Shown here piece after piece: positions 1 to 36,847 of a stretch of 37,134 bases of DNA. Each line of letters starts with the position of its first letter. Position 1 is the first letter of the stretch. Both the position numbers and the translations under genes were made by a program. This DNA is from a virus (taxonomy: Duplodnaviria; Heunggongvirae; Uroviricota; Caudoviricetes), in IMG/VR virus record IMGVR_UViG_2703719349_000005; one strand, given 5' to 3'. The notes under the pieces are model-generated. The model had not been told where the DNA came from. It searched no databases and saw only the letters and a list, made by a program, of their open reading frames with translations.

Positions 1-1032
1 TCAAAAACTTGCTATTGATGTTGGTAGTGTTGCCAGCGGATTAAACCGTAATGCAGTTTCCAGGTGATCCGGTGCTAGATGTGCGTAACGCATAGTCATT
101 TTTATGTCGTGATGTCCGAGGATTTTTTGCAAAGCAAGGATATTTCCACCCGACATCATAAAATGCGCCGCAAACGTATGGCGCAGAACGTGTGTCAGTT
201 GACCGCGAGGGAGCACGATAGACGTTTTTTCCATCACGGATAAAAATTGAAAATAGCAGTCTGTGAAGAAATTGAACCCATCGAGCGCCATGATCTCTTC
301 GTAAAGCTCTTTACTGATAGGGATGCTTCTGTTTTTCTTCCCCTTCGTTCTGACAAAGGTAATTCGGTATTTGGTCACCTGTGAGCGGGTAAGGTTTATT
401 GCTTCTCGCCAGCGTGCGCCTGTGCTTAAGCATATCTTGACTACCAGTGCCAGAATTGGGTCCTGACGTTTGCAATCATCCAGCAGTTCAACAATCTGCT
501 CATGGGTAAGCCATGCCATCTCTTTTTCTGCGATGGTGAATTTTCGCATGTTCTCCAGTGGGTTTGGATACGACCATTCGCCCAGGCGGGATAGTTCGCT
601 AAAAACACTACTTAGATAGCTTTGCTCCAGGTTAATGGTGACCGGGCTGGCCCCTTTCTTCCATTTCTCGCTGAAGTAGATCTCACCTGTCAGTCGTTTA
701 TCTCGATAATGGGCAAACATTTTAGATGTGAGATCGGTTGCAAGGGGATTGCCCAGAGCGTCAACCATCAGCAGCAATTTGTCATAGACATGCTGCCCAG
801 CAGTCAGAGATTTACCATGTAGTTTGAACCATAGCTCAACCACGTCTTTCAGGGTTCGACGATCTACTGATTCGCCCAGCCAGGGCTTTGCTTCGGTTTC
901 TTCCATCGTGTGACGCTCAAAAGCCAGTGCTTCGCCTTTGGTGGCGAATTGTTTACGCACACGACGCCCACTACGTCCGGCGGGGTAACATTCGCAAAGC
1001 CATTTTCCTGTGGTGAGTTTTCGTACTGCCAT
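1..1032 (-). CDS. int: Tyrosine integrase, P2/186 family (3' end runs off the window start)
   Basis: Translation has C-terminal tyrosine-recombinase motifs (LRHTFA..., HHDIKMTMRYAHL). Likely start is ATG at 1032 (MAVRKLTTGKW) with GGAGG 6-7 nt upstream on the minus strand; the longer six-frame ORF from 1110 is probably an artefact. No stop before position 1. Confidence 0.88.
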   Translation of the reverse strand: MAVRKLTTGKWLCECYPAGRSGRRVRKQFATKGEALAFERHTMEETEAKPWLGESVDRRTLKDVVELWFKLHGKSLTAGQHVYDKLLLMVDALGNPLATDLTSKMFAHYRDKRLTGEIYFSEKWKKGASPVTINLEQSYLSSVFSELSRLGEWSYPNPLENMRKFTIAEKEMAWLTHEQIVELLDDCKRQDPILALVVKICLSTGARWREAINLTRSQVTKYRITFVRTKGKKNRSIPISKELYEEIMALDGFNFFTDCYFQFLSVMEKTSIVLPRGQLTHVLRHTFAAHFMMSGGNILALQKILGHHDIKMTMRYAHLAPDHLETALRFNPLATLPTSIASF

Positions 1033-1218
1033 AAAAAATGCCCTCCAATAGAGAGCATTTTTACTGTATGTATAACCAGTGTCAATGTATGAAATCTTGC
1101 GACCATACATCTCACTGAAGCCATAATGAAGTTGGCTATTTTTTGCTATGTGAGTATGTGACTTTTGCGGTTAGCCTGCGGCTCATTGTTATATTAGGCG
1201 CAGATATAAAAGCAAAAA

Positions 1219-1410
1219 TTATCGCGAGTTTTTAGTACAGATTTTTTTTGATTTACTAATGGTTCCATCATTGCAAACGAACTTTCCATCGGAGGTACAG
1301 TGAGAGACACCTCCCTTTTTCCCAGAACAAGGATAATTTTTAGCATAGGTAGTTAGTGGGTTTAATAACAAAGAGCATGATAAAACCACAAAAAATACCT
1401 TACCAAGCAT
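1219..1410 (-). CDS. Small secreted Cys-rich peptide (63 aa, signal peptide + ~40-aa Lys/Cys-rich mature part), unknown function
   Basis: Hydrophobic N-terminus ([19 protein letters not shown]) then [45 protein letters not shown] Shine-Dalgarno 7 nt before the ATG at 1410. Sits 15 bp downstream of the repressor gene on the same strand. AT-rich. Confidence 0.5.
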
Positions 1411-1425
1411 AGTTTACTCCCGGTA

Positions 1426-2001
1426 TTACCTAACGTACTTAATTGTTAAACTTATAATTTTTCCAATTATTTCAACATCTTCTATCTTGCACTCGAAGGA
1501 TCTGTTTCCACCTTCAACGAAGATTCTTCCACCGGGTAAACGAGTAATGTCGCGGATTGTTATTTCGCCATCAATACTTATTACCCATTTACCATCACGT
1601 ATATCATCAAATTCTTTATCACAAATAAATTCAGAATTGTTATCTGTGATGACAAAAGGTTTTTTAAACGTAGAGGGTAGAAATCCCTTATCAAAAATAT
1701 AAAAACCGTCTTCACGCAAGGCACCATCAGATAATACATACTTAGCAACTTCCATCGTATTTGTATTACCTGAAGTTTGCTTTGAACCATGTCCAGTTGT
1801 GAGCCAATTAAGCGAGGTGCCCGTTTCAAGGGCGCACTGGATTACCCATTCTGCTGGGAATGAGTCACGCATGTAGCGTGTAGCGAGTGTACTTTTAGAG
1901 ATTCCTAAATGATCGCACAACGCCTGTCGAGTTTTGAATCCATAAGCTTCTACCATGCGCTCTATAGCGCCTCGTCCGCCTTTCTCCAAATTCATGGTCA
2001 C
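1426..2001 (-). CDS. cI: CI-like immunity repressor (186-type, ~190 aa, N-terminal HTH)
   Basis: 191-aa ORF facing int, with an HTH-like N-terminus (TRQALCDHLGISKSTLATRYMRD). Size and position match phage 186 CI rather than the 99-aa P2 C. Confidence 0.75.
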   Translation of the reverse strand: MTMNLEKGGRGAIERMVEAYGFKTRQALCDHLGISKSTLATRYMRDSFPAEWVIQCALETGTSLNWLTTGHGSKQTSGNTNTMEVAKYVLSDGALREDGFYIFDKGFLPSTFKKPFVITDNNSEFICDKEFDDIRDGKWVISIDGEITIRDITRLPGGRIFVEGGNRSFECKIEDVEIIGKIISLTIKYVR

Positions 2002-2039
2002 CCCAAGTGAACTTTTATCTTGACGATTTCATGATGCGA

Positions 2040-2068
2040 TCGTATGTTTATGGTGTTCACAAAATACA
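2040..2068 (+). promoter_or_regulatory. Candidate sigma70 early lytic promoter (pR-like): -35 TTGACG (2040-2045), 17-nt spacer, -10 TATGTT (2063-2068)
   Basis: Hexamers read directly in the repressor/apl intergenic region, oriented toward apl-cII. Confidence 0.35.
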
Positions 2069-2120
2069 AACGATCCGTATTCGTCCTGATTAATCATCAT
2101 TAAACGAGGAATGTTGCATC

Positions 2121-2368: not shown

Positions 2369-2884
2369 TTGACCATGTTTGATTACCAAGTTTCCAAACA
2401 TCCACATTTTGATGAAGCCTGTCGTGCATTTGCACTGCGCCACAATCTGGTGCAACTGGCAGAACGTGCAGGCATGAATGTGCAGATTCTGCGGAACAAG
2501 CTGAACCCAGCTCAGCCTCATTTATTAACCGCACCAGAAATCTGGCTGCTTACCGATCTGACTGAAGATTCAACGCTGGTAGATGGTTTTCTGGCACAGA
2601 TTCACTGCCTGCCATGTGTACCGATTAATGAGGTTGCAAAAGAGAAACAGCCGCATTACGTCATGAGCGCAACTGCAGAGATCGGACGTGTTGCAGCAGG
2701 TGCGGTATCTGGTGATGTAAAAACTAGTGCCGGTCGTCGTGATGCTATCAGCAGCATTAACTCTGTAACACGACTGATGGCGCTGGCTGCTGTTTCATTG
2801 CAGGCCCGTTTACAGGCTAATCCTGCGATGGCGAGTGCAGTTGATACCGTGACTGGCCTCGGTGCTTCATTCGGTTTGCTGTGA
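2369..2884 (+). CDS. cII: CII-like lysogeny establishment regulator (186 CII family)
   Basis: 171-aa ORF whose translation ([24 protein letters not shown]...[40 protein letters not shown]...) matches my recollection of 186 CII in size and sequence. Confidence 0.7.
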
Positions 2885-2891
2885 GGTGCTT

Positions 2892-3092
2892 ATGCTGACG
2901 AAAGAACCATCATTTGCATCGCTGCTGGTAAAACAAAGCCCGGCAATGCACTACGGTCACGGCTGGATCATGGGTGAGGATGGTAAACGCTGGCATCCGT
3001 GCCGTTCACAAGATGAATTGCTGGCAGAACTATCTACGAAAAAACGGGGGAACAAATGGCTATTGAAGGCGCTGCGGCGACTGTTCCATTAA
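2892..3092 (+). CDS. Hypothetical early protein (~66 aa)
   Basis: ORF with GAGG 5 nt upstream of ATG at 2892, starting just after the cII stop. No recognisable motifs. Confidence 0.4.
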   Translation: MLTKEPSFASLLVKQSPAMHYGHGWIMGEDGKRWHPCRSQDELLAELSTKKRGNKWLLKALRRLFH

Positions 3093-3397
3093 GCCCCGGT
3101 GAACGCCTGAATGGACTTAATCACATAGCGGAATTAAGGGCGAAAGTTTTTGGCCTGAATATTGAGTCAGAGCTTGAGCGGTTTATTAAAGATATGCGTG
3201 ATCCACGGGATATCAATAACGAACAAAATAAACGAGCACTGGCAGCCATATTCTTTATGGCAAAAATTCCGGCTGAACGTCATAGCATCAGCATCAATGA
3301 GCTGACCACTGACGAAAAGCGGGAGTTGATTAAAGCAATGAATCATTTTCGTGCAGTGGTGAGCTTATTTCCCAGACGGCTAACCATGCCGAATTAA
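3056..3397 (+). CDS. Hypothetical early protein (113 aa)
   Basis: ORF in the early operon; no recognisable motifs. Confidence 0.45.
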   Translation: MAIEGAAATVPLSPGERLNGLNHIAELRAKVFGLNIESELERFIKDMRDPRDINNEQNKRALAAIFFMAKIPAERHSISINELTTDEKRELIKAMNHFRAVVSLFPRRLTMPN

Positions 3398-8792: not shown

Positions 8793-9600
8793 TTATTTAG
8801 AAAGGTACTTATCTCTAAGTTGATTCAGTCTGTCAGCATCGCGTTCTGAAAACTCGGCGTCACCATAGATCGATTTCCCATCTGCGTCTTCAAGGCCAAT
8901 GACTGTGACGGTAAATATAGCATCAGCCGGAACTTTAAGTTTTCCCCAATCAGAGTATCTATTAGGGGCTAATTTCCAGTTGGCTTTCTCACCTGGTTCC
9001 AGACCTCCAGAAATTTTATAGTTGAAGACGTCAGAGAACCAAGGGACGCTTCTTCCTGGGCTGGCAATAACTCCTTTGAAGAATACTCTGGCAACCGCTT
9101 TGTCTGTTCCGTTTTCAACGCTAATATCCAGAATTGGCTGATCATTGCCGTAATCCTCTTTCTGGAAATAAAAACGGGAACGTTCGACCTTGAAGGCTTT
9201 CATTTTTTCCGCAGCCTGTGTTGCAGAGGTTTGTTTGGCTTCCAGTTCTTTTATTTCTTGCAGAGCCTGTTCTTTCTCTCTCTTCTCACGCTCAAGGCGA
9301 ATAGTTTGTGCGTAATTTATAACCTCATCACCAGTTTTACCTTCCAACGCTGACTTAATTTTTGTTTCGTAGACGTCCCCAGAAGACGTTCCAGCCTGCA
9401 TTAGCTCTCTCATGTTGATTTGGCTAAAGGCAACGACTTTAACTGCATCATCAAACTGAGCTTTTTTATCTGCAGGTAAGGACTCTCTTACTTTTTGAAT
9501 GGACTCTTTCATCGACTGATCGCTTGATGCATCGATCTTCGGTTTGTCACAAGCAGTAAGCAGCAGAGCAAAAGCAATTACGCCAGTTAATTTCTTCATA
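8793..9600 (-). CDS. Lipoprotein with central coiled-coil (269 aa), unknown function
   Basis: Likely start is ATG at 9600 (MKKLTGVIAFALLLTACDKP, lipobox LTAC). Central EREKREKEQALQEIKELEAKQ coiled-coil and a beta-rich C-terminal half. The six-frame ORF extends to 9671 but the lipobox start is preferred. Confidence 0.6.
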
Positions 9601-10128
9601 TCCCTATCCCAATCGTAAAAAAACAAGGCTAATCCTAACAGGATTAGCGGGCATGACAAACTCATAGCCATATAGGTGTGCTGTATAAATTAGCGGGATG
9701 AGAAAGCCTGCACAGACCCTCATGTTGAAACTTGATTTTAGCTCAAAAGAGCTGACACTAAATAACTGCGCGGAATAATGCTCCACTTTCGGTTAGCCCT
9801 TGGCCCTTGGCCCTTGCTGGGTAAGGCGTGGGGCCGTTTTCTTCGCCTGATCCTGCTGTATCTGGCCTACAGTAGGTTGTCCTTACGCGACATGCCACAT
9901 GTCAGTAAACGGCAGGTGTAGCAGTATTAGACGCAGCTATTTAGTGTGTATTAAGCTGGCTCATATTTATGACTGGTTTCAAGGTTTGACCGATTTTCAT
10001 GTCATGCATGTCTATGCTGCATGAGTTCGCATGATCGTTTGAGGATCGGTTTGGCTAAGACATGCCAGAACTGGCGGGCTTTTGCTCATGTCATGCAGGT
10101 GCATGAAAACTACTACATAAAGCGGGCA

Positions 10129-10273: not shown

Positions 10274-11335
10274 ATGCTTAAAACAAATAAGGTATTTATT
10301 GACACACAAACGTACGTAAAGGCTGGTCTTCATTTTGAGGGGGTAGCATTTAAAGCTTTCCATGAATTATGTGCGAAAGGTGATTTAGTCTTAATTACAA
10401 CTACAGTTGTAGAGAGAGAAGTAAAAGGTAAAATAGAGGAATCAATAAAGGATGCTCTGCAGGCTATAAACACAGTACAAAGAAAAGCTAGGCTTTTGAA
10501 TAGTATTGATAATGGACCGCTCCATGATTTTTTTCAGCAATTTAACGAACATGAAATTCACGAAGCAGCACAAAAAGTTTTTGATGATTTTTTGAAAGGA
10601 TGTCACGCCAAATTAGCTACAATAGAAGTGATAGATCTTAATGAGGTTTTAGATAAATACTTTGGCAAAGAACCACCATTTGGGCAAAATAAGAAAAAAA
10701 GTGAGTTTCCTGATGCAATCACTTTAGCTGCGGTAGAGCGATTTGTTAATGATGAAGATGTGTATATCATTTCTGAGGATAGTGACTTAAAAAATTATTG
10801 TGATGGTAAAAACAATCTTCATCAAATTGATTCACTTGATAAGTTTCTAGGTGAATACAATACGCATACAAACGAATTAAGTAATAAATTGATGCAGTTT
10901 ATCGAAAGCAAACGTGAAGACATAAGAGCGGACGTAATTGCCCAACTCAATGATGCCGATGGATATAACGTTTCAACTTGGGAAGACGCTGAATTGGATT
11001 CATTTGAAGTCGTCAATATTGATGACTTTGAACCATCAATAATTAAGATTAACAATAATTATTGTCTAGCGACCTTCTCTGTTTCTGTAGATTTTGAAGT
11101 TACTGTTTCTGGTCCAGACTTTAATAATGGGTATTGGGATAGCGAAGATAAAGTAATGATTCCAATGGAGACAACCACACGAACTGAAGTTCAAGAGATT
11201 AGTTTCGATATTGAAATTGAAGTTATGTATGAAATCGAGGATGGTGAATTAACAGATATCGCATTTGATGTGAATATTGATAAGTTATCCCGAGGGATTG
11301 AGTTCTCTATTGAAGAAAATAATTTTGAATATTAA
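10274..11335 (+). CDS. PIN-like nuclease-domain protein with acidic C-terminal domain (353 aa); candidate defence / exclusion cargo
   Basis: N-terminal VFIDTQ (Asp in strand 1), VVEREV, SEFPDAITLAAV and ISEDSDL acidic motifs are consistent with a PIN fold. C-terminal ~180 aa is D/E-rich and beta-rich. Very AT-rich. Confidence 0.5.
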   Translation: MLKTNKVFIDTQTYVKAGLHFEGVAFKAFHELCAKGDLVLITTTVVEREVKGKIEESIKDALQAINTVQRKARLLNSIDNGPLHDFFQQFNEHEIHEAAQKVFDDFLKGCHAKLATIEVIDLNEVLDKYFGKEPPFGQNKKKSEFPDAITLAAVERFVNDEDVYIISEDSDLKNYCDGKNNLHQIDSLDKFLGEYNTHTNELSNKLMQFIESKREDIRADVIAQLNDADGYNVSTWEDAELDSFEVVNIDDFEPSIIKINNNYCLATFSVSVDFEVTVSGPDFNNGYWDSEDKVMIPMETTTRTEVQEISFDIEIEVMYEIEDGELTDIAFDVNIDKLSRGIEFSIEENNFEY

Positions 11336-20249: not shown

Positions 20250-22208
20250 ATGATAGTAGGGATTTTTTTAAGGTATTTTAAAACATACAACGGAAATCAT
20301 TACATACCGTTATCTTCTGGAAGTCAGTTTTGTGGAATTGTTGGTAACAATGGAATTGGCAAAAGTTCTGTTCTTGAGGCTTTAGATTCGTTTATTAATA
20401 ACAAACCATGGAATATTAATTCTTCATTTAAAAGAACCTCCAGTGACAGACCTTCTCCACATATTGTTCCTTTATATCTTATAAAGCGAGAGGAATTACA
20501 TGAAGATCATCATGCTAAAGCTGAAATCTTAACGCAATTAGTATTAGAATATAGCAATAGTAATGCTGATGTTACATTGACGCCAACAACACGAAATATA
20601 ATTAATACGTTTTTTGAACATATTAACAAATTAAAAAGAAATTTAAATCTCCAAGATTATTTTTTGATCCCTCTGGGTGTCGAGAAAGATGGTGATGTAA
20701 GTATTTCGATTCTTAATGGGAAGAGTTTATGTCGACTTTTGGAGGTTGATAATCCCGATAATAAAGTTTCGAGCGAGTTGCTTAGTGAGCACTTTGGGTA
20801 TTTATTACATCATGTCCGCCATAAGTATGAATATATATATATTCCAAAGGATATAGACTCTGAATCGTTTACGAAGCTAGAAACAAGTGAAGTACAAAAG
20901 TTGATGGGTGAGTCTTTAGAGCAGATAATTAAAGATAGAATATCTGATAGAACCATAAGTCAAATCAATACAGGGCTTGCCAAATTTCTGGATGGTGTTG
21001 AAGAGGAGCTTGAAGAATATGGTTATAGAACATCTGGCGAGAGACAATCGCGATTAAAAAAGAAAGATGTTTATAATTTGATTATCGAAGCATTCTTCAA
21101 GGTTAGGAAATTAAATAAAAAGCAGAATTCAGGTTGGATTGAAATTAGCTCGCTAAGTTCAGGGGAGAAGCAACGTGCAATAATGGATATTGCATATGGG
21201 TTTCTTACCAATCATCGAGAAAATGGCGATAATCTGATTATTGGAATTGATGAGCCAGAATGTTCTCTTCATATGTCTGCATGTTTTGAACAATTTGAAA
21301 AGCTCTATTCTATTAGTGGTATATGTGAACAATTAATATTTACTTCACATTGGTATGGCTATCTTCCAACCGTCGAAAATGGATGTACCACAACTATCCT
21401 TAAAACAGATTCAACTCATCATTTTGAATTATATGATCTTGCCAGTTATAGAGAAGAAGTCAGGAAGAAAGTAAAAACCTCTTCCCCGGGTATGCCATTT
21501 GATATAAAAATAAAAAGTGTAAATGACCTTATACAATCCATAATATCTAGCTGTTTGGCTGAGAAACCTTACAATTGGTTGATTTGTGAGGGTACTACAG
21601 AAAAAATATATCTTTCGCATTATCTAAAGGACTTGGTAGAAAATAAAAGGCTAAGGATTGTGCCTGTAGGGGGAGCTAGTGAAGTTAAAAAAATATTTAA
21701 GCATTTAGAAGCTTCTTATGAAGAGTTCAAAAAAGACCTCAAAGGAAAAGTGTTCTTACTAACCGATACAGATTCAGAGTTGGTGTCATATGATACCCCA
21801 GTTATGCCGCATGTTGTTTGTAAGCGAATTGTTAGTGTAGGTGATTCAGTGAAGTTGGTTGATATTTCTTCCAATCCAGTTTCTCCTGCAACAGAAATAG
21901 AGGATTGTCTTAATCCTGTATCGTTTATAGAGGCTTTAACATCATTTTCTTCACGTTTTCCTGAGCTTCAGGCATTGCTGCCTAATAGTAATGTTATGAT
22001 AGATGAAAGACATTCATCGTTTGCTGCGATGGATTTGTCACCCAAGAACAAAAAAACGCTTGATGCTTTTTTTGACCGTGAAGGGATTAAGTTTGATTTT
22101 TCAAAGGAATATATTTCAATCTGTGAGCGAAATGAGCGGAAAAGGCCAGAGTGGATTGCCAAAATTGAAAATTTTTTTATAAGTGATAAACCTGTAAAGT
22201 TTAATTGA
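20250..22208 (+). CDS. OLD/GajA-like ABC-type ATPase fused to Toprim-like nuclease domain (652 aa); candidate antiphage cargo
   Basis: Walker A GNNGIGKSS, ABC-signature-like LSSGEKQ, Walker B LIIGIDEPE, H-loop-like TSHW. C-terminal Toprim-like acidic motifs WLICEGTTEK, IVPVGG, FLLTDTDSE. Strongly AT-rich relative to flanking phage genes. Confidence 0.65.
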   Translation: MIVGIFLRYFKTYNGNHYIPLSSGSQFCGIVGNNGIGKSSVLEALDSFINNKPWNINSSFKRTSSDRPSPHIVPLYLIKREELHEDHHAKAEILTQLVLEYSNSNADVTLTPTTRNIINTFFEHINKLKRNLNLQDYFLIPLGVEKDGDVSISILNGKSLCRLLEVDNPDNKVSSELLSEHFGYLLHHVRHKYEYIYIPKDIDSESFTKLETSEVQKLMGESLEQIIKDRISDRTISQINTGLAKFLDGVEEELEEYGYRTSGERQSRLKKKDVYNLIIEAFFKVRKLNKKQNSGWIEISSLSSGEKQRAIMDIAYGFLTNHRENGDNLIIGIDEPECSLHMSACFEQFEKLYSISGICEQLIFTSHWYGYLPTVENGCTTTILKTDSTHHFELYDLASYREEVRKKVKTSSPGMPFDIKIKSVNDLIQSIISSCLAEKPYNWLICEGTTEKIYLSHYLKDLVENKRLRIVPVGGASEVKKIFKHLEASYEEFKKDLKGKVFLLTDTDSELVSYDTPVMPHVVCKRIVSVGDSVKLVDISSNPVSPATEIEDCLNPVSFIEALTSFSSRFPELQALLPNSNVMIDERHSSFAAMDLSPKNKKTLDAFFDREGIKFDFSKEYISICERNERKRPEWIAKIENFFISDKPVKFN

Positions 22209-34514: not shown

Positions 34515-36200
34515 TTATCCTAATCCTGGCCATACCATGACGATGATTGTCCCTGCCAGCGTCAGCAGGACGTTGGCGATTGCGTAGGTGCCCGCATAGC
34601 CCAGCGCAGGGATGTTACTGCGAGCTGTATCACTGATGATCTCCATTGCCGGCGCGCAGGTGCGTGCGCCCATCATTGCGCCGAACAACAGTGCGCGGTT
34701 CATTCGCAATACATAAGCACCGAACAAGAAACAGATAACCACGGGCACAAGACTGACAATTAATCCGGCAATCAACATCTGACCGCCAATCGCGCCCAGG
34801 CCGTTATTAATACCGCTACCGGCGCTCAGACCAACGCCTGCCATAAACACCATCAAGCCGAACTCTTTCACCATGCTTAATGCACCTTGCGGAATGTAAC
34901 CGAAGGTCGGGTGGTTAGCACGCATAAAGCCCAGCATAATTCCGGCGAATAACAACCCGGCAGCGTTCCCCATGCCGAAACTGAATGTGCTGAACTGGAA
35001 GGTGATCATCCCGATCATCAGCCCAATAACAAAGAAGGCGCAAAATGCCAGCAGGTCAGTGACCTGGCTGTGAATCGAGATAAAGCCGATGCGATCGGCG
35101 ATGGTTTTTACGCGACGGGCATCACCGCTGACTTGTAAAACGTCACCTTTGTTAAGCACGACGTTGTCATCTATCGGCATCTCAATCTGGCTACGAATGA
35201 CGCGGTTAAGGAAGCAACCGTGATCGGTCAACTTCAGTTGTGCGAGACGTTTACCTACAGCGTTATGGTTTTTAACGACCACTTCTTCAGTGACGATACG
35301 CATGTCGAGAAGGTCACGATCGAAAACTTCTTTACCGTTACGGAAGCTGGGATCGAGTCGGGCATGGGCGTCGGGATAGCCTACCAACGCTATTTCATCG
35401 CCCATTTGTAGCACGGCATCACCGTCTGGATTTGCCAGAATCCCGTTACGTCGAATACGTTCAATGTAGCAGCCGGTTTGTCGATAAATACCCAGTTCAC
35501 GCAGATTTTTGCCGTCGGTCCAGGCCACCAGCTCCGGGCCGACGCGATAGGCGCGGATCACCGGTAAATAAACCTTACGGTTGGCATCAGTGTCCAGGCC
35601 ACGTTCGCGGGCGATTTGCTGGGCGCTGGTCTGTAAGTCCTGATGCTGCAATTTCGGCAAGTAACGCGCACCAACAATCAAACTCACCAGACCGATTAAA
35701 TAGGTTAAGGCATACCCGAGGCTCAGATTATCCAGTGCCAGTGAGAGCTGCCTGCTTTCCATGCCGAAATGACGCAGTGTATCGCCAGCACCGACCAGAA
35801 CCGGTGTCGACGTCATAGAGCCTGCTAACATACCGGCCGTCAGGCCAATATCCCAGCCAAACAGCTTACCTAACCCTAAGGCGATCACCAGCGCACTGCC
35901 AACCATCACCAGTGCTAACATTAGGTAATTTTTCCCATCGCGAAAAAAAATGGAAAAAAAGTTCGGTCCGGCTTCGACCCCGACGCAGAAAATAAACAGC
36001 ATAAAGCCAAGATTAAGCGCATCGGTGTTAATGCTGAAATGTTGTTGGCCTAATAACAGCGATACGACTAAAACGCCAATGGAATTACCCAGTTGGATCG
36101 AACCAAGTCGTAACTTTCCGAGACATAGCCCAAGCGCGAGGACCACAAATAATAACAGAATGTAATTCCCATTTAACAATTCGGCGACGTTTATATTCAC
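34515..36200 (-). CDS. ybjL: Putative transport protein YbjL (AspT/YidE/YbjL family, two TrkA-C domains)
   Basis: 561-aa translation ([36 protein letters not shown]...) matches E. coli YbjL as I recall it. Confidence 0.88.
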
Positions 36201-36469
36201 GGAGGCTAACTTCTTGTTTACTAGTAAGCTGTTGAAAGAAATGGTAATTTACGATAATGTTTTTTACCAGAATTCAGGGCGCAGATTCATTCAGCGCACC
36301 TAAACGATAGTAAAGTAACAATATATTTTACTAGTGTAATCACATTAGGTATTAACGGCTATATGAATTGCGTTGGCCTATATTAGCATGGAATGCGAAG
36401 CGGCTTTATCTTACTGAACGCCACACTGGCGAAAAATGTGTTCGATAGACGCAGTGTCAGGAGGAACGA

Positions 36470-36847
36470 GTGAAACATAAACAACGTTGGGCGGGGGCAA
36501 TCTGCTGTTTTGTCCTCTTCATTGTGGTGTGCCTTTTTCTGGCGACGCACATGAAAGGCGCTTTTCGGGCTGCCGGGCATCCTGAAATCGGCTTGCTATT
36601 TTTCATTCTTCCTGGAGCAGTTGCCAGTTTCTTTTCACAGCGTAGAGAAGTCCTGAAACCTCTATTTGGCGCAATGCTGGCGGCACCCTGTTCAATGCTC
36701 ATTATGCGGCTGTTTTTTTCACCGACGCGCTCATTCTGGCAAGAGCTGGCATGGTTACTAAGCGCGGTGTTCTGGTGTGCGCTGGGGGCACTGTGTTTCT
36801 TATTTATCAGTAGTTTGTTTAAACCACAGCACAGAAAAAATCAGTAA
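36470..36847 (+). CDS. ybjM: Inner membrane protein YbjM
   Basis: 125-aa multi-TM protein with GTG start after AGGAGGA; sits between ybjL and grxA as in E. coli. Confidence 0.8.
   Translation: MKHKQRWAGAICCFVLFIVVCLFLATHMKGAFRAAGHPEIGLLFFILPGAVASFFSQRREVLKPLFGAMLAAPCSMLIMRLFFSPTRSFWQELAWLLSAVFWCALGALCFLFISSLFKPQHRKNQ

Follow-up and report, generated by a model that had tools for sequence, protein, structure and literature searches.

Prophages carry moron, lysogenic-conversion or exclusion genes, among them lambda rexAB, which is expressed with cI, and old, tin and fun of P2. Phage 186 transcribes both cI and int from its lysogenic promoter, pL. Envelope-located superinfection-exclusion proteins include the lipoproteins Llp of T5 and Cor of phi80, Sp and Imm of T4, and SieA of P22. 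P2-like phages have cargo hotspots (PMC9122126, PMC13586616), and a minor defence hotspot of theirs is the interval between integrase and primase (PMC13586616).

Two described proteins are closer to the gene that is the subject of this report. One is YdcA of Escherichia coli, an uncharacterised, chromosomally encoded protein of 57 aa that is predicted to be periplasmic (PMC7642389, bioRxiv 10.1101/2024.02.12.579971). The sole phenotype reported for it is that deletion of ydcA in E. coli W causes sensitivity to 300 mM 3-hydroxypropionate; the gene is reportedly induced at pH 5 via YdcI (PMC7642389), and the rydC/ydcA spacer is among the listed RpoS constitutive promoters (PMC5493296). The other is Dis2 (Lpg0823), found in Legionella as a subunit of Dot/Icm, a type IV secretion system (T4SS). 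This subunit consists of two similar lobes with five disulfides, lies on the side of the core complex that is turned towards the outer membrane, touches three lipoproteins (DotC, DotD and DotK), and has been described as Legionellales- or species-specific and as lacking homologues at the level of structure (PMC8486379, PMC12716638). The T4SS is hardly impaired when Dis2 is lost (PMC12716638).

The DNA analysed here, a single stretch of 37,134 nucleotides that we refer to as the window, is a 186-like (Peduoviridae) prophage whose far end adjoins the host genes ybjL and ybjM. An original prediction, made from the letters of the window, had proposed a small gene for a Cys-rich secreted peptide between the repressor and integrase genes. 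The features of this region are as follows.

1..1032, minus strand: P2/186-type integrase gene (int), downstream of ydcA (PF24624 and PF00589)
1034..1062, minus strand: 13-bp hairpin (AAAAAUGCUCUCU-AUU-GGAGGGCAUUUUU), from an RNA fold of 1020-1230(-)
1085..1057: promoter-like sequence TTGACA-17-AAAAAT, from a scan
1219..1410, minus strand: ydcA-family gene, 63 codons plus stop (ORF listing, NF007463, phrog_6000, PF27300)
1222..1341, minus strand: part encoding the mature YdcA domain, 40 aa with four Cys (conservation, substitution counts, AF2)
1342..1410, minus strand: part encoding the predicted signal peptide, residues 1-23 (family alignment, AF2)
1417..1421, minus strand: Shine-Dalgarno-like GGGAG, 6 nt before the ydcA ATG (direct sequence reading)
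1426..2001, minus strand: 186-type CI repressor gene (PF07022, E = 2.8e-33; PF16452, E = 1.1e-28; RefSeq 'phage repressor protein CI')
2002..2120, no strand assigned: cI/apl divergent control region (promoter-like site, flanking ORFs)

The 63-aa ORF, which reads on the minus strand from an ATG at 1410..1408 to a stop codon at 1221..1219, proved to be real, as attested by its matches to NF007463 and phrog_6000 and by a dN far below dS, and the good ribosome-binding site claimed for it corresponds to the GGGAG sequence. Its position between repressor and integrase genes also stood, since Pfam identified a 186-type CI upstream and a P2/186-type Int downstream, as did its placement on the same strand as cI and 15 bp downstream of it, the cI stop codon (TAA) being at 1428..1426. 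The int start is the ATG at 1032, where homology begins; the mechanical ORF extends to 1110, and gene calls for int in identical loci range from 338 to 350 aa.

The encoded protein is almost certainly a member of the YdcA family (PF27300, PRK10040), a named family with a chromosomal K-12 member that the original prediction had missed and that emerged from the homology search. The protein scored 116.1 bits against NCBIfam model NF007463 (PRK10040.1-2; cutoff, 93 bits), with residues 5-63 aligned to positions 1-58 of the 58 in the profile, and it matched phrog_6000 with an E value of 4.6e-34; a precomputed match to the Pfam family PF27300 ('YdcA') exists for the identical protein and for each of its close homologues. 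Against NF007462, the K-12-type equivalog model, it scored 68 bits and thus fell below the cutoff of 118 bits, for which reason we regard the window gene as a paralogous, prophage-borne subtype and not as the chromosomal ydcA. The window and K-12 proteins share a signal peptide, a PCSGxKGG(V/I)xHC...GxF(V/I)CxDGxxSxSKKxC core with four Cys and a length of ~57-63 aa, but the K-12 gene adjoins rydC/cybB, whereas the window gene lies in a cI-int operon and is of the NF007463 subtype.

In the window protein, as in the family, the four-Cys core (PCSGxKGG..C..F.C.DG..S.SK..C) follows directly after the signal peptide. An alignment of 150 diverse members showed C28, C38, C46 and C58 and the Gly/Lys/Ser motif to be conserved in at least 90% of them; the positions that are invariant or conserved to at least that level are P27, C28, S29, G30, K32, G33, G34, C38, F44, C46, G49, S52, S54 and C58. 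A family profile compared with 1.84 billion protein representatives found 468 representative clusters at E <= 1e-3. The median start of the domain is residue 28; in 87% of members it immediately follows the signal peptide, and 133 of 141 domain instances are basic, the net charge being +4 in the 31-aa core of the window protein and +3 as the family mean. RefSeq labels the ydcA gene of this locus 'hypothetical protein' or, for some identical copies, 'YdcA family protein', and literature searches under YdcA-like, PRK10040, PF27300 and the RefSeq protein accession returned nothing.

Several other identifications were considered and rejected. A GULLO2 match in Pfam was sub-threshold and spurious (the Pfam copy used predates PF27300), and a resemblance to the lpg1681 family was not significant (E = 0.11). 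The UniRef cluster label 'Conjugal transfer protein' is unsupported, as the plasmid copies lie in miscellaneous accessory regions and not in transfer operons. Occurrences of the name 'ydcA' in papers on a gonococcal island, the F plasmid and Bacillus are coincidences of naming.

The prediction of a signal peptide followed by a basic mature peptide of about 40 aa with four cysteines agrees well with what we found. The first 23 residues comprise an n-region with K4, a hydrophobic core and T-Y-A at -3/-1, and the remaining 40 aa (4.3 kDa, pI 9.64) contain 9 Lys and Arg residues versus 2 Asp and Glu residues and four Cys. Across the family alignment, the Ala at -1 is invariant and the residue at -3 is always small, and the signal peptide itself, at 11-64% identity between YdcA homologues, is free to vary. 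The AF2 model of the pre-protein has a helix at residues 3-16 and pLDDT values of 86-93 across residues 31-60. Cleavage by signal peptidase would fall after A23, between TYA and K, and export through Sec to the periplasm is very probable from these signals. Because there is a Sec signal peptide and there are no further export genes, the periplasm alone, rather than the outside of the cell, is the most likely destination; the word 'secreted' in the original prediction therefore applies as far as the Sec pathway but not beyond the periplasm.

That prediction had also argued that the gene was probably acquired because it is AT-rich. The ydcA ORF does have a GC content of 35.4%, against 50.1% for the whole window, but it lies in a low-GC block, from ~1100 to ~1750, that also takes in the spacer from ydcA to int (37.1%) and, within cI, the C-terminal half (33.5%). 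Since the spacer and this half of cI are equally AT-rich, low GC content is a mark of the whole immunity-proximal block and not of ydcA alone, and the argument for acquisition is weak.

The 15-bp gap between cI and ydcA is too short to accommodate a promoter or a terminator, our scan found no terminator-like site on the minus strand from cI to int, and no promoter was found that belongs to ydcA itself. Positional comparison showed that distant YdcA genes likewise have a 186-type cI immediately upstream and int further downstream. This holds for prophages of E. coli, Hafnia, Yersinia and Enterobacter and for Haemophilus phage HP2, and the cI-ydcA gap ranges from -1 to 53 bp among them; in HP2, ydcA is an unannotated 60-aa ORF whose ATG overlaps the cI stop codon. 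From the 15-bp spacing and this conserved synteny, we infer that ydcA is made together with CI in lysogens, a conclusion that we hold to be probable. The proposal that the gene is embedded in a lysogeny operon with cI was thus upheld, the spacing being equally tight in five other prophage lineages. Its description as a typical moron arrangement was only partly correct: ydcA is accessory cargo in a variable slot, but it lacks its own promoter and terminator and probably rides on the cI transcript. The presumed source of a lysogenic (pL-type) transcript of cI and ydcA is the control region at 2002..2120, a placement drawn from knowledge of phage 186, pL not having been located in the window. A scan found a promoter-like site on the plus strand at 2020-2048, and an apl/cox-like ORF at 2121, followed by cII (PF06892), is divergent from cI.

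The 186-nt spacer between ydcA and int is predicted to be strongly structured. For 1020-1230(-), the RNA fold reached -57.3 kcal/mol, an energy that 200 shuffled sequences all failed to match (z = -4.15). Its hairpin at 1034..1062 buries the int Shine-Dalgarno sequence (GGAGG, 1046..1042) and is followed, just before the int ATG, by a U run. This element could act as a terminator or attenuator of the cI-ydcA message and hold Int at a low level in lysogens, and the TTGACA-17-AAAAAT sequence at 1085..1057 could serve int separately. A comparison of the region 900-2200 with Rfam found no RNA family.

Of 5426 complete E. coli genomes, at least 592 contain the 1.1-kb block that comprises the int 5' end, ydcA and cI (>=80% coverage), among them those of ATCC 8739, BLR(DE3) and Rosetta2(DE3). 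A megablast search of isolated phages with positions 1000-2100 found only the int 5' end, in Klebsiella phages, and no isolate with the cI-ydcA block; among 140 phage records with this type of CI, 137 lack a YdcA gene, the only carriers being HP2/S2. What separates ydcA from int varies among the lineages: there is a KAP NTPase gene in a second E. coli lineage, a gene for a 347-aa unknown protein in Hafnia and orf1(S) in HP2, and there is no extra gene in Yersinia or Enterobacter. Other cargo occupies the cI-int slot in strain LR-48, Klebsiella phage 4LV2017 and phage vB_EcoM-813R9. Because related phages hold other genes in this slot, we regard ydcA as accessory. The KAP NTPases found there match the PADLOC defence candidate PDC-S20; the window protein itself matched 0 defence families in PADLOC-DB and none of the known exclusion families.

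YdcA homologues are also encoded among the tail genes of Moraxella and Acinetobacter phages and on Acinetobacter, Psychrobacter and Rhizobium plasmids, a scatter that suggests the behaviour of mobile cargo. No universal conserved partner gene was found beside YdcA on these phages and plasmids; exported OB-fold proteins (PF12869) recur beside it twice, in HP2 and on an Acinetobacter plasmid. Single chromosomal copies of YdcA genes are common.

Across the prophage lineages, mature YdcA is 69-95% identical, compared with 33-71% for CI and 49-97% for Int, and it is among the best-conserved parts of these prophages. Third-position variation is visible in the ydcA DNA alignment, and the E. coli, Hafnia and Enterobacter copies differ from each other by 17-19.5 synonymous versus 1.5-5 nonsynonymous differences over 32 codons. 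Synonymous sites are saturated in these comparisons and dN is 0.02-0.08; in the one pair for which dS can still be estimated, dN/dS is 0.08. Judged by these counts, the mature YdcA core is under strong purifying selection, and conservation of this strength implies a conserved target in the envelope. Such conservation across genera is unlike that of the usual exclusion proteins, which evolve fast in an arms race.

What the target might be is suggested by the wider family. Dis2 (7MUC chain AN) was matched by phmmer with E = 3.1e-5 and by the family profile with E = 6.7e-5, both of its lobes aligning to the YdcA core with all four Cys included. Chain AN was also the top Foldseek match (probability 0.87), a weak result at the level of a fold search. 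In addition, a Dis2-like protein carries a precomputed PF27300 match and gave reciprocal E values of 2-3e-4 with the YdcA NCBIfam models. We conclude that homology of YdcA and Dis2 is probable but not proven. YdcA is by prediction, like Dis2, exported, disulfide-rich and periplasmic, and each Dis2 lobe aligns with the YdcA core; the differences are that Dis2 has two lobes and five disulfides, is not basic and belongs to a T4SS, whereas the window protein is a single basic lobe and the window contains no T4SS genes.

Longer family members place the domain at the N terminus of other exported proteins. Among 33 long members, Endonuclease_NS is the partner in three, SNase in one, a PLD/NucT-like nuclease in one, the PBCV basic adaptor domain in two and VasL in one, so that nuclease fusions, which involve three unrelated nuclease folds, are a minority (5 of 33); a word-indexed profile search was dominated by the 132-aa class and gives no census of fusions. 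A large class of 132-148 aa in Enterobacterales consists of the YdcA domain, a basic linker and a conserved C-terminal motif (PTCAPLYMA..PICSGNQY). It was found in three kinds of type VI secretion system (T6SS) locus, with members encoded within the core gene clusters of T6SS and as the last gene of a vgrG-Tle3-Tli3-PAAR island, where the YdcA-domain protein directly follows a 474-aa membrane protein.

The reading that we prefer, to which we give a probability of about 0.5, is that the window carries an intact YdcA-family accessory gene in the cI-ydcA-int operon of a 186-like E. coli prophage and that the product acts as an envelope-docking mini-domain. On this model, ydcA would be transcribed with cI from the lysogenic promoter, as spacing and synteny suggest, and lysogens would produce YdcA continuously. 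The 23-aa signal peptide would direct the protein to Sec, and signal peptidase I would cleave after TYA. In the periplasm, the 40-aa basic domain would acquire two disulfides, to judge from its four conserved Cys and the disulfide-rich lobes of Dis2, and mature YdcA would dock on the periplasmic side of the outer membrane, its partner there being a conserved component that is probably anionic. Docking at the outer membrane is proposed because of the position of the Dis2 lobes, the use of the domain as an N-terminal module of nucleases and of proteins from T6SS loci, and its basic charge. As a domain standing alone could do no more than bind or occupy, we favor a function in modifying the envelope of lysogens; the likeliest gain for the phage, which is the last and speculative step, would be a change in the lysogen envelope that hinders the entry of foreign DNA or the action of injection machines, in the manner of exclusion. 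The docking role taken by itself is tentative, with the odds somewhat against it, and it is doubtful that exclusion is the function for which phage YdcA has been selected. Several observations speak against the explanation: PADLOC and the known exclusion families gave no match, conservation is stronger than in typical exclusion proteins, nuclease fusions are few (5 of the 33 long members), loss of Dis2 is barely felt by the T4SS, and the phenotype of the paralogue concerns tolerance of organic acid and not phage (PMC7642389).

That phenotype is the starting point for the main rival, according to which prophage YdcA is a host-fitness (lysogenic-conversion) factor that, like the chromosomal protein, confers envelope tolerance of acid, organic acids or stationary phase and has no action on other phages. 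The 3-hydroxypropionate sensitivity of the E. coli W deletion strain and acid induction via YdcI (PMC7642389) and the listing of an RpoS constitutive promoter in the rydC/ydcA spacer (PMC5493296) would all be in keeping with such a role, and the very strong purifying selection points to a conserved host target more readily than to an arms race. Moreover, the BLR(DE3) prophage is defective, with cII and replication gene pseudogenes, and yet its ydcA is intact and its product identical to that of the window. On the other hand, the paralogue phenotype comes from one study and has no known mechanism, the window protein falls below the cutoff of the K-12-type model (68 versus 118 bits against NF007462), and the cI-int slot otherwise collects defence-like cargo. 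On balance, we consider a pure host-fitness role unlikely, though less so than any of the alternatives that follow.

The nuclease fusions raise the question of whether the domain is a periplasmic nucleic-acid binder, that is, a substrate-binding module of nucleases whose solo copy would disturb the DNA of incoming phages, transformation or conjugation. Fusion to three unrelated secreted nuclease folds would be explained in this way, and the net charge of +4 in the 31-aa core (family mean, +3), the PF12869 OB-fold neighbours in HP2 and the Acinetobacter plasmid, and the fact that the phage-borne copies found sit in naturally competent hosts (Haemophilus, Moraxella, Acinetobacter) point the same way. 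However, E. coli is not known to be naturally competent under usual conditions, structure comparison recognized no DNA-binding fold, and small accessory domains of secreted nucleases are often anchors or metal-binding modules. The Dis2 lobes, too, are not basic and are peripheral in the T4SS, away from the channel (PMC12716638). We therefore think a nucleic-acid-binding function quite improbable.

The T6SS loci, in turn, could be taken to mean that YdcA is an orphan periplasmic immunity protein or inhibitor that protects the lysogen against a T6SS effector, bacteriocin, lysozyme or protease. Longer YdcA proteins do occur in T6SS core clusters and at the end of the vgrG-Tle3-Tli3-PAAR island, and YdcA faintly resembles the Pin-II (potato type II) proteinase inhibitors (E = 0.24-2). 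Immunity proteins are normally specific and fast-evolving, whereas the YdcA domain is nearly invariant across orders, and its fusion to nucleases does not suit an immunity role; no cognate toxin gene adjoins ydcA in the window or in other 186-like prophages. The Pin-II matches are not significant, the best having an E value of 0.24, and we rejected this identity because four Cys residues do not make up the eight-Cys pattern of Pin-II. An immunity function is thus very unlikely.

A released, defensin-like antimicrobial or bacteriocin-like peptide that kills competitors would resemble YdcA in being small and basic and in having four Cys and a signal peptide, but it is highly implausible here, since a Sec signal peptide alone reaches only the periplasm in E. 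coli, the window has no dedicated exporter, immunity or modification genes near ydcA, larger periplasmic proteins and a structural T4SS subunit contain the domain as one of their modules, and solitary chromosomal copies are widespread. That the ORF is a chance ORF or encodes an outer-membrane lipoprotein is refuted by strong homology and a dN far below dS in the first case and, in the second, by the restriction of Cys12 (in 'VLSC') to the window subtype, other members lacking it and all having an AXA-type site with an invariant Ala at -1, and by its closeness to the N terminus, from which it is only 12 residues away; shortness, AT richness and the Cys at position 12 are what favors these two readings.

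Returning to the envelope-docking reading, it is useful to compare the window gene with the known prophage systems. It resembles prophage morons in that it is accessory, lies in a variable slot, is probably carried on the repressor transcript and has a lower GC content than the phage, but it differs from them in having no promoter or terminator of its own and no defence match, and it is far better conserved than its neighbours. Like T5 Llp, phi80 Cor, T4 Sp and Imm and P22 SieA, YdcA is phage encoded and targeted to the envelope, and it is small; it has no sequence relationship to any of these proteins, and it is not a lipoprotein. An extension of the docking idea, which we put forward as a long shot, is that YdcA is a general module for docking to the outer membrane from below, common to T4BSS (Dis2), proteins of T6SS loci and periplasmic nucleases, and that temperate phages and plasmids, expressing the solo copy from the lysogeny operon, use it as a 'plug' against injection or DNA-entry machines. 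Such a plug would be competitive, and its targets would be superinfecting phage tails, conjugation and T6SS attack.

The gene is already listed in databases under its family name, and for a prophage to carry cargo in a known variable region is nothing unusual. We did not find, in the literature searched, the cI-ydcA synteny across five genera, including the unannotated HP2 gene, and the probable homology to Dis2 and the association of YdcA with nucleases and T6SS loci appear unreported. The links to Dis2, T6SS and nucleases are the first functional leads for the YdcA family (PF27300). If the Dis2 link is true, the supposedly Legionella-specific Dis2 would become part of a proteobacteria-wide family; if the 'plug' proposal is true, YdcA would represent a new, sequence-conserved class of envelope-level exclusion factor, and if the solo domain acts on the entry of DNA or of machines, an envelope-level mechanism would be added to the cargo repertoire of P2/186-like phages. 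On a practical level, ydcA is present in about one-ninth of complete E. coli genomes, including those of the protein-expression B-strain derivatives BLR(DE3) and Rosetta2(DE3), and YdcA is likely to be produced whenever the prophage repressor is.

One match of the YdcA family came from a secretion system: the family matched both lobes of Dis2 (Lpg0823), a subunit of the Legionella Dot/Icm T4SS (PDB 7MUC/7MUD chain AN), with E = 3e-5 to 7e-5, and reciprocal searches recovered the family at E = 2-3e-4 (Dis2-like entries, P0336 and P0337). The Dis2-like P0336 has PF27300 on record. The literature describes the Legionella protein as species-specific and without homologues (PMC8486379, PMC12716638).

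Larger proteins also carry the domain. In a class of 132-148 aa from Klebsiella, E. coli and relatives (L036-L039, L042-L044), the YdcA domain is followed by a basic S/T/K linker and a conserved C-terminal PTCAPLYMA..PICSGNQY segment. Members of this class are encoded within T6SS core clusters (tssF-tssG-tssJ-tssE ... tssA/VasL), and a vgrG-Tle3-Tli3-PAAR island also ends with one. Furthermore, metagenomic and genomic proteins (P0190, P0169, P0119 and P0213) join an N-terminal YdcA domain to secreted nucleases whose folds are of three unrelated kinds: Endonuclease_NS, SNase/EcnA-like and PLD/NucT-like.

Among phages, we found an unannotated YdcA gene in Haemophilus phage HP2, lying between cI and orf1(S)/int, its own ATG overlapping the cI stop codon, and the same match in phage S2. 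In HP2 and an Acinetobacter lwoffii plasmid, mobile elements that are unrelated to each other, the YdcA gene has an OB-fold protein of family PF12869 ("tRNA_anti-like"), exported or lipoprotein, beside it or close by.

NC_003315.1 ~2486-2668 (-), equal to 2920-3102 (+) of HP2 locus L001: YdcA-family ORF, 60 aa
L001 3112-3876: PF12869 protein, HP2 orf1(S)
L009 1690-2511: PF12869 protein, A. lwoffii plasmid

In sister prophages, the slot between cI and int is occupied by KAP-family P-loop NTPases, either after ydcA or replacing it (L020-L025, 4198-5529; L004, 25-1542), and these NTPases hit PDC-S20, a defence candidate in PADLOC, at E = 1e-171 and 8e-78.

The spacer that separates ydcA from int in the window contains a predicted hairpin that pairs the int Shine-Dalgarno sequence (1046..1042) and is followed 3' by a U run and then the int ATG (1032); folding of the entire spacer gave z = -4.15. 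The hairpin may be a terminator or a translational attenuator holding Int low in lysogens. A sequence scan placed a promoter-like site over its left arm.

1033-1218: spacer between ydcA and int
1034-1062 (-): 13-bp hairpin from RNA folding, arms AAAAAUGCUCUCU-AUU-GGAGGGCAUUUUU
1085..1057 (-): promoter-like site, TTGACA-17-AAAAAT

Other genes at cargo sites lie elsewhere in the window. An OLD/AriA-like gene is inserted among the tail genes, where P2-like phages are known to carry cargo, and two genes occupy the interval between the replication and portal genes, which is the main P2 cargo hotspot; PADLOC returned no match for either of these two products. Host genes at one end place the prophage boundary near 34.4 kb, and rcdA/ybjJ adjoin the int side in identical loci.

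20250-22208 (+): OLD/AriA-like ATPase-TOPRIM protein, 652 aa (PADLOC AriA, E = 8.5e-22; Pfam AAA_15 and OLD-like_TOPRIM)
8793-9671 (-): DUF6694 protein
10274-11335 (+): PIN_12-domain protein
34515-36847: host ybjL-like Asp-Al_Ex permease gene and ybjM

Finally, B-strain derivatives of E. coli have a defective P2/186-like prophage; in the BLR(DE3) copy (L006; NZ_CP020368.1 852666-859766) cII and the replication gene are pseudogenes and int, ydcA and cI are all intact. Its YdcA protein is identical to that of the window, with one synonymous change across the compared 32-codon core.
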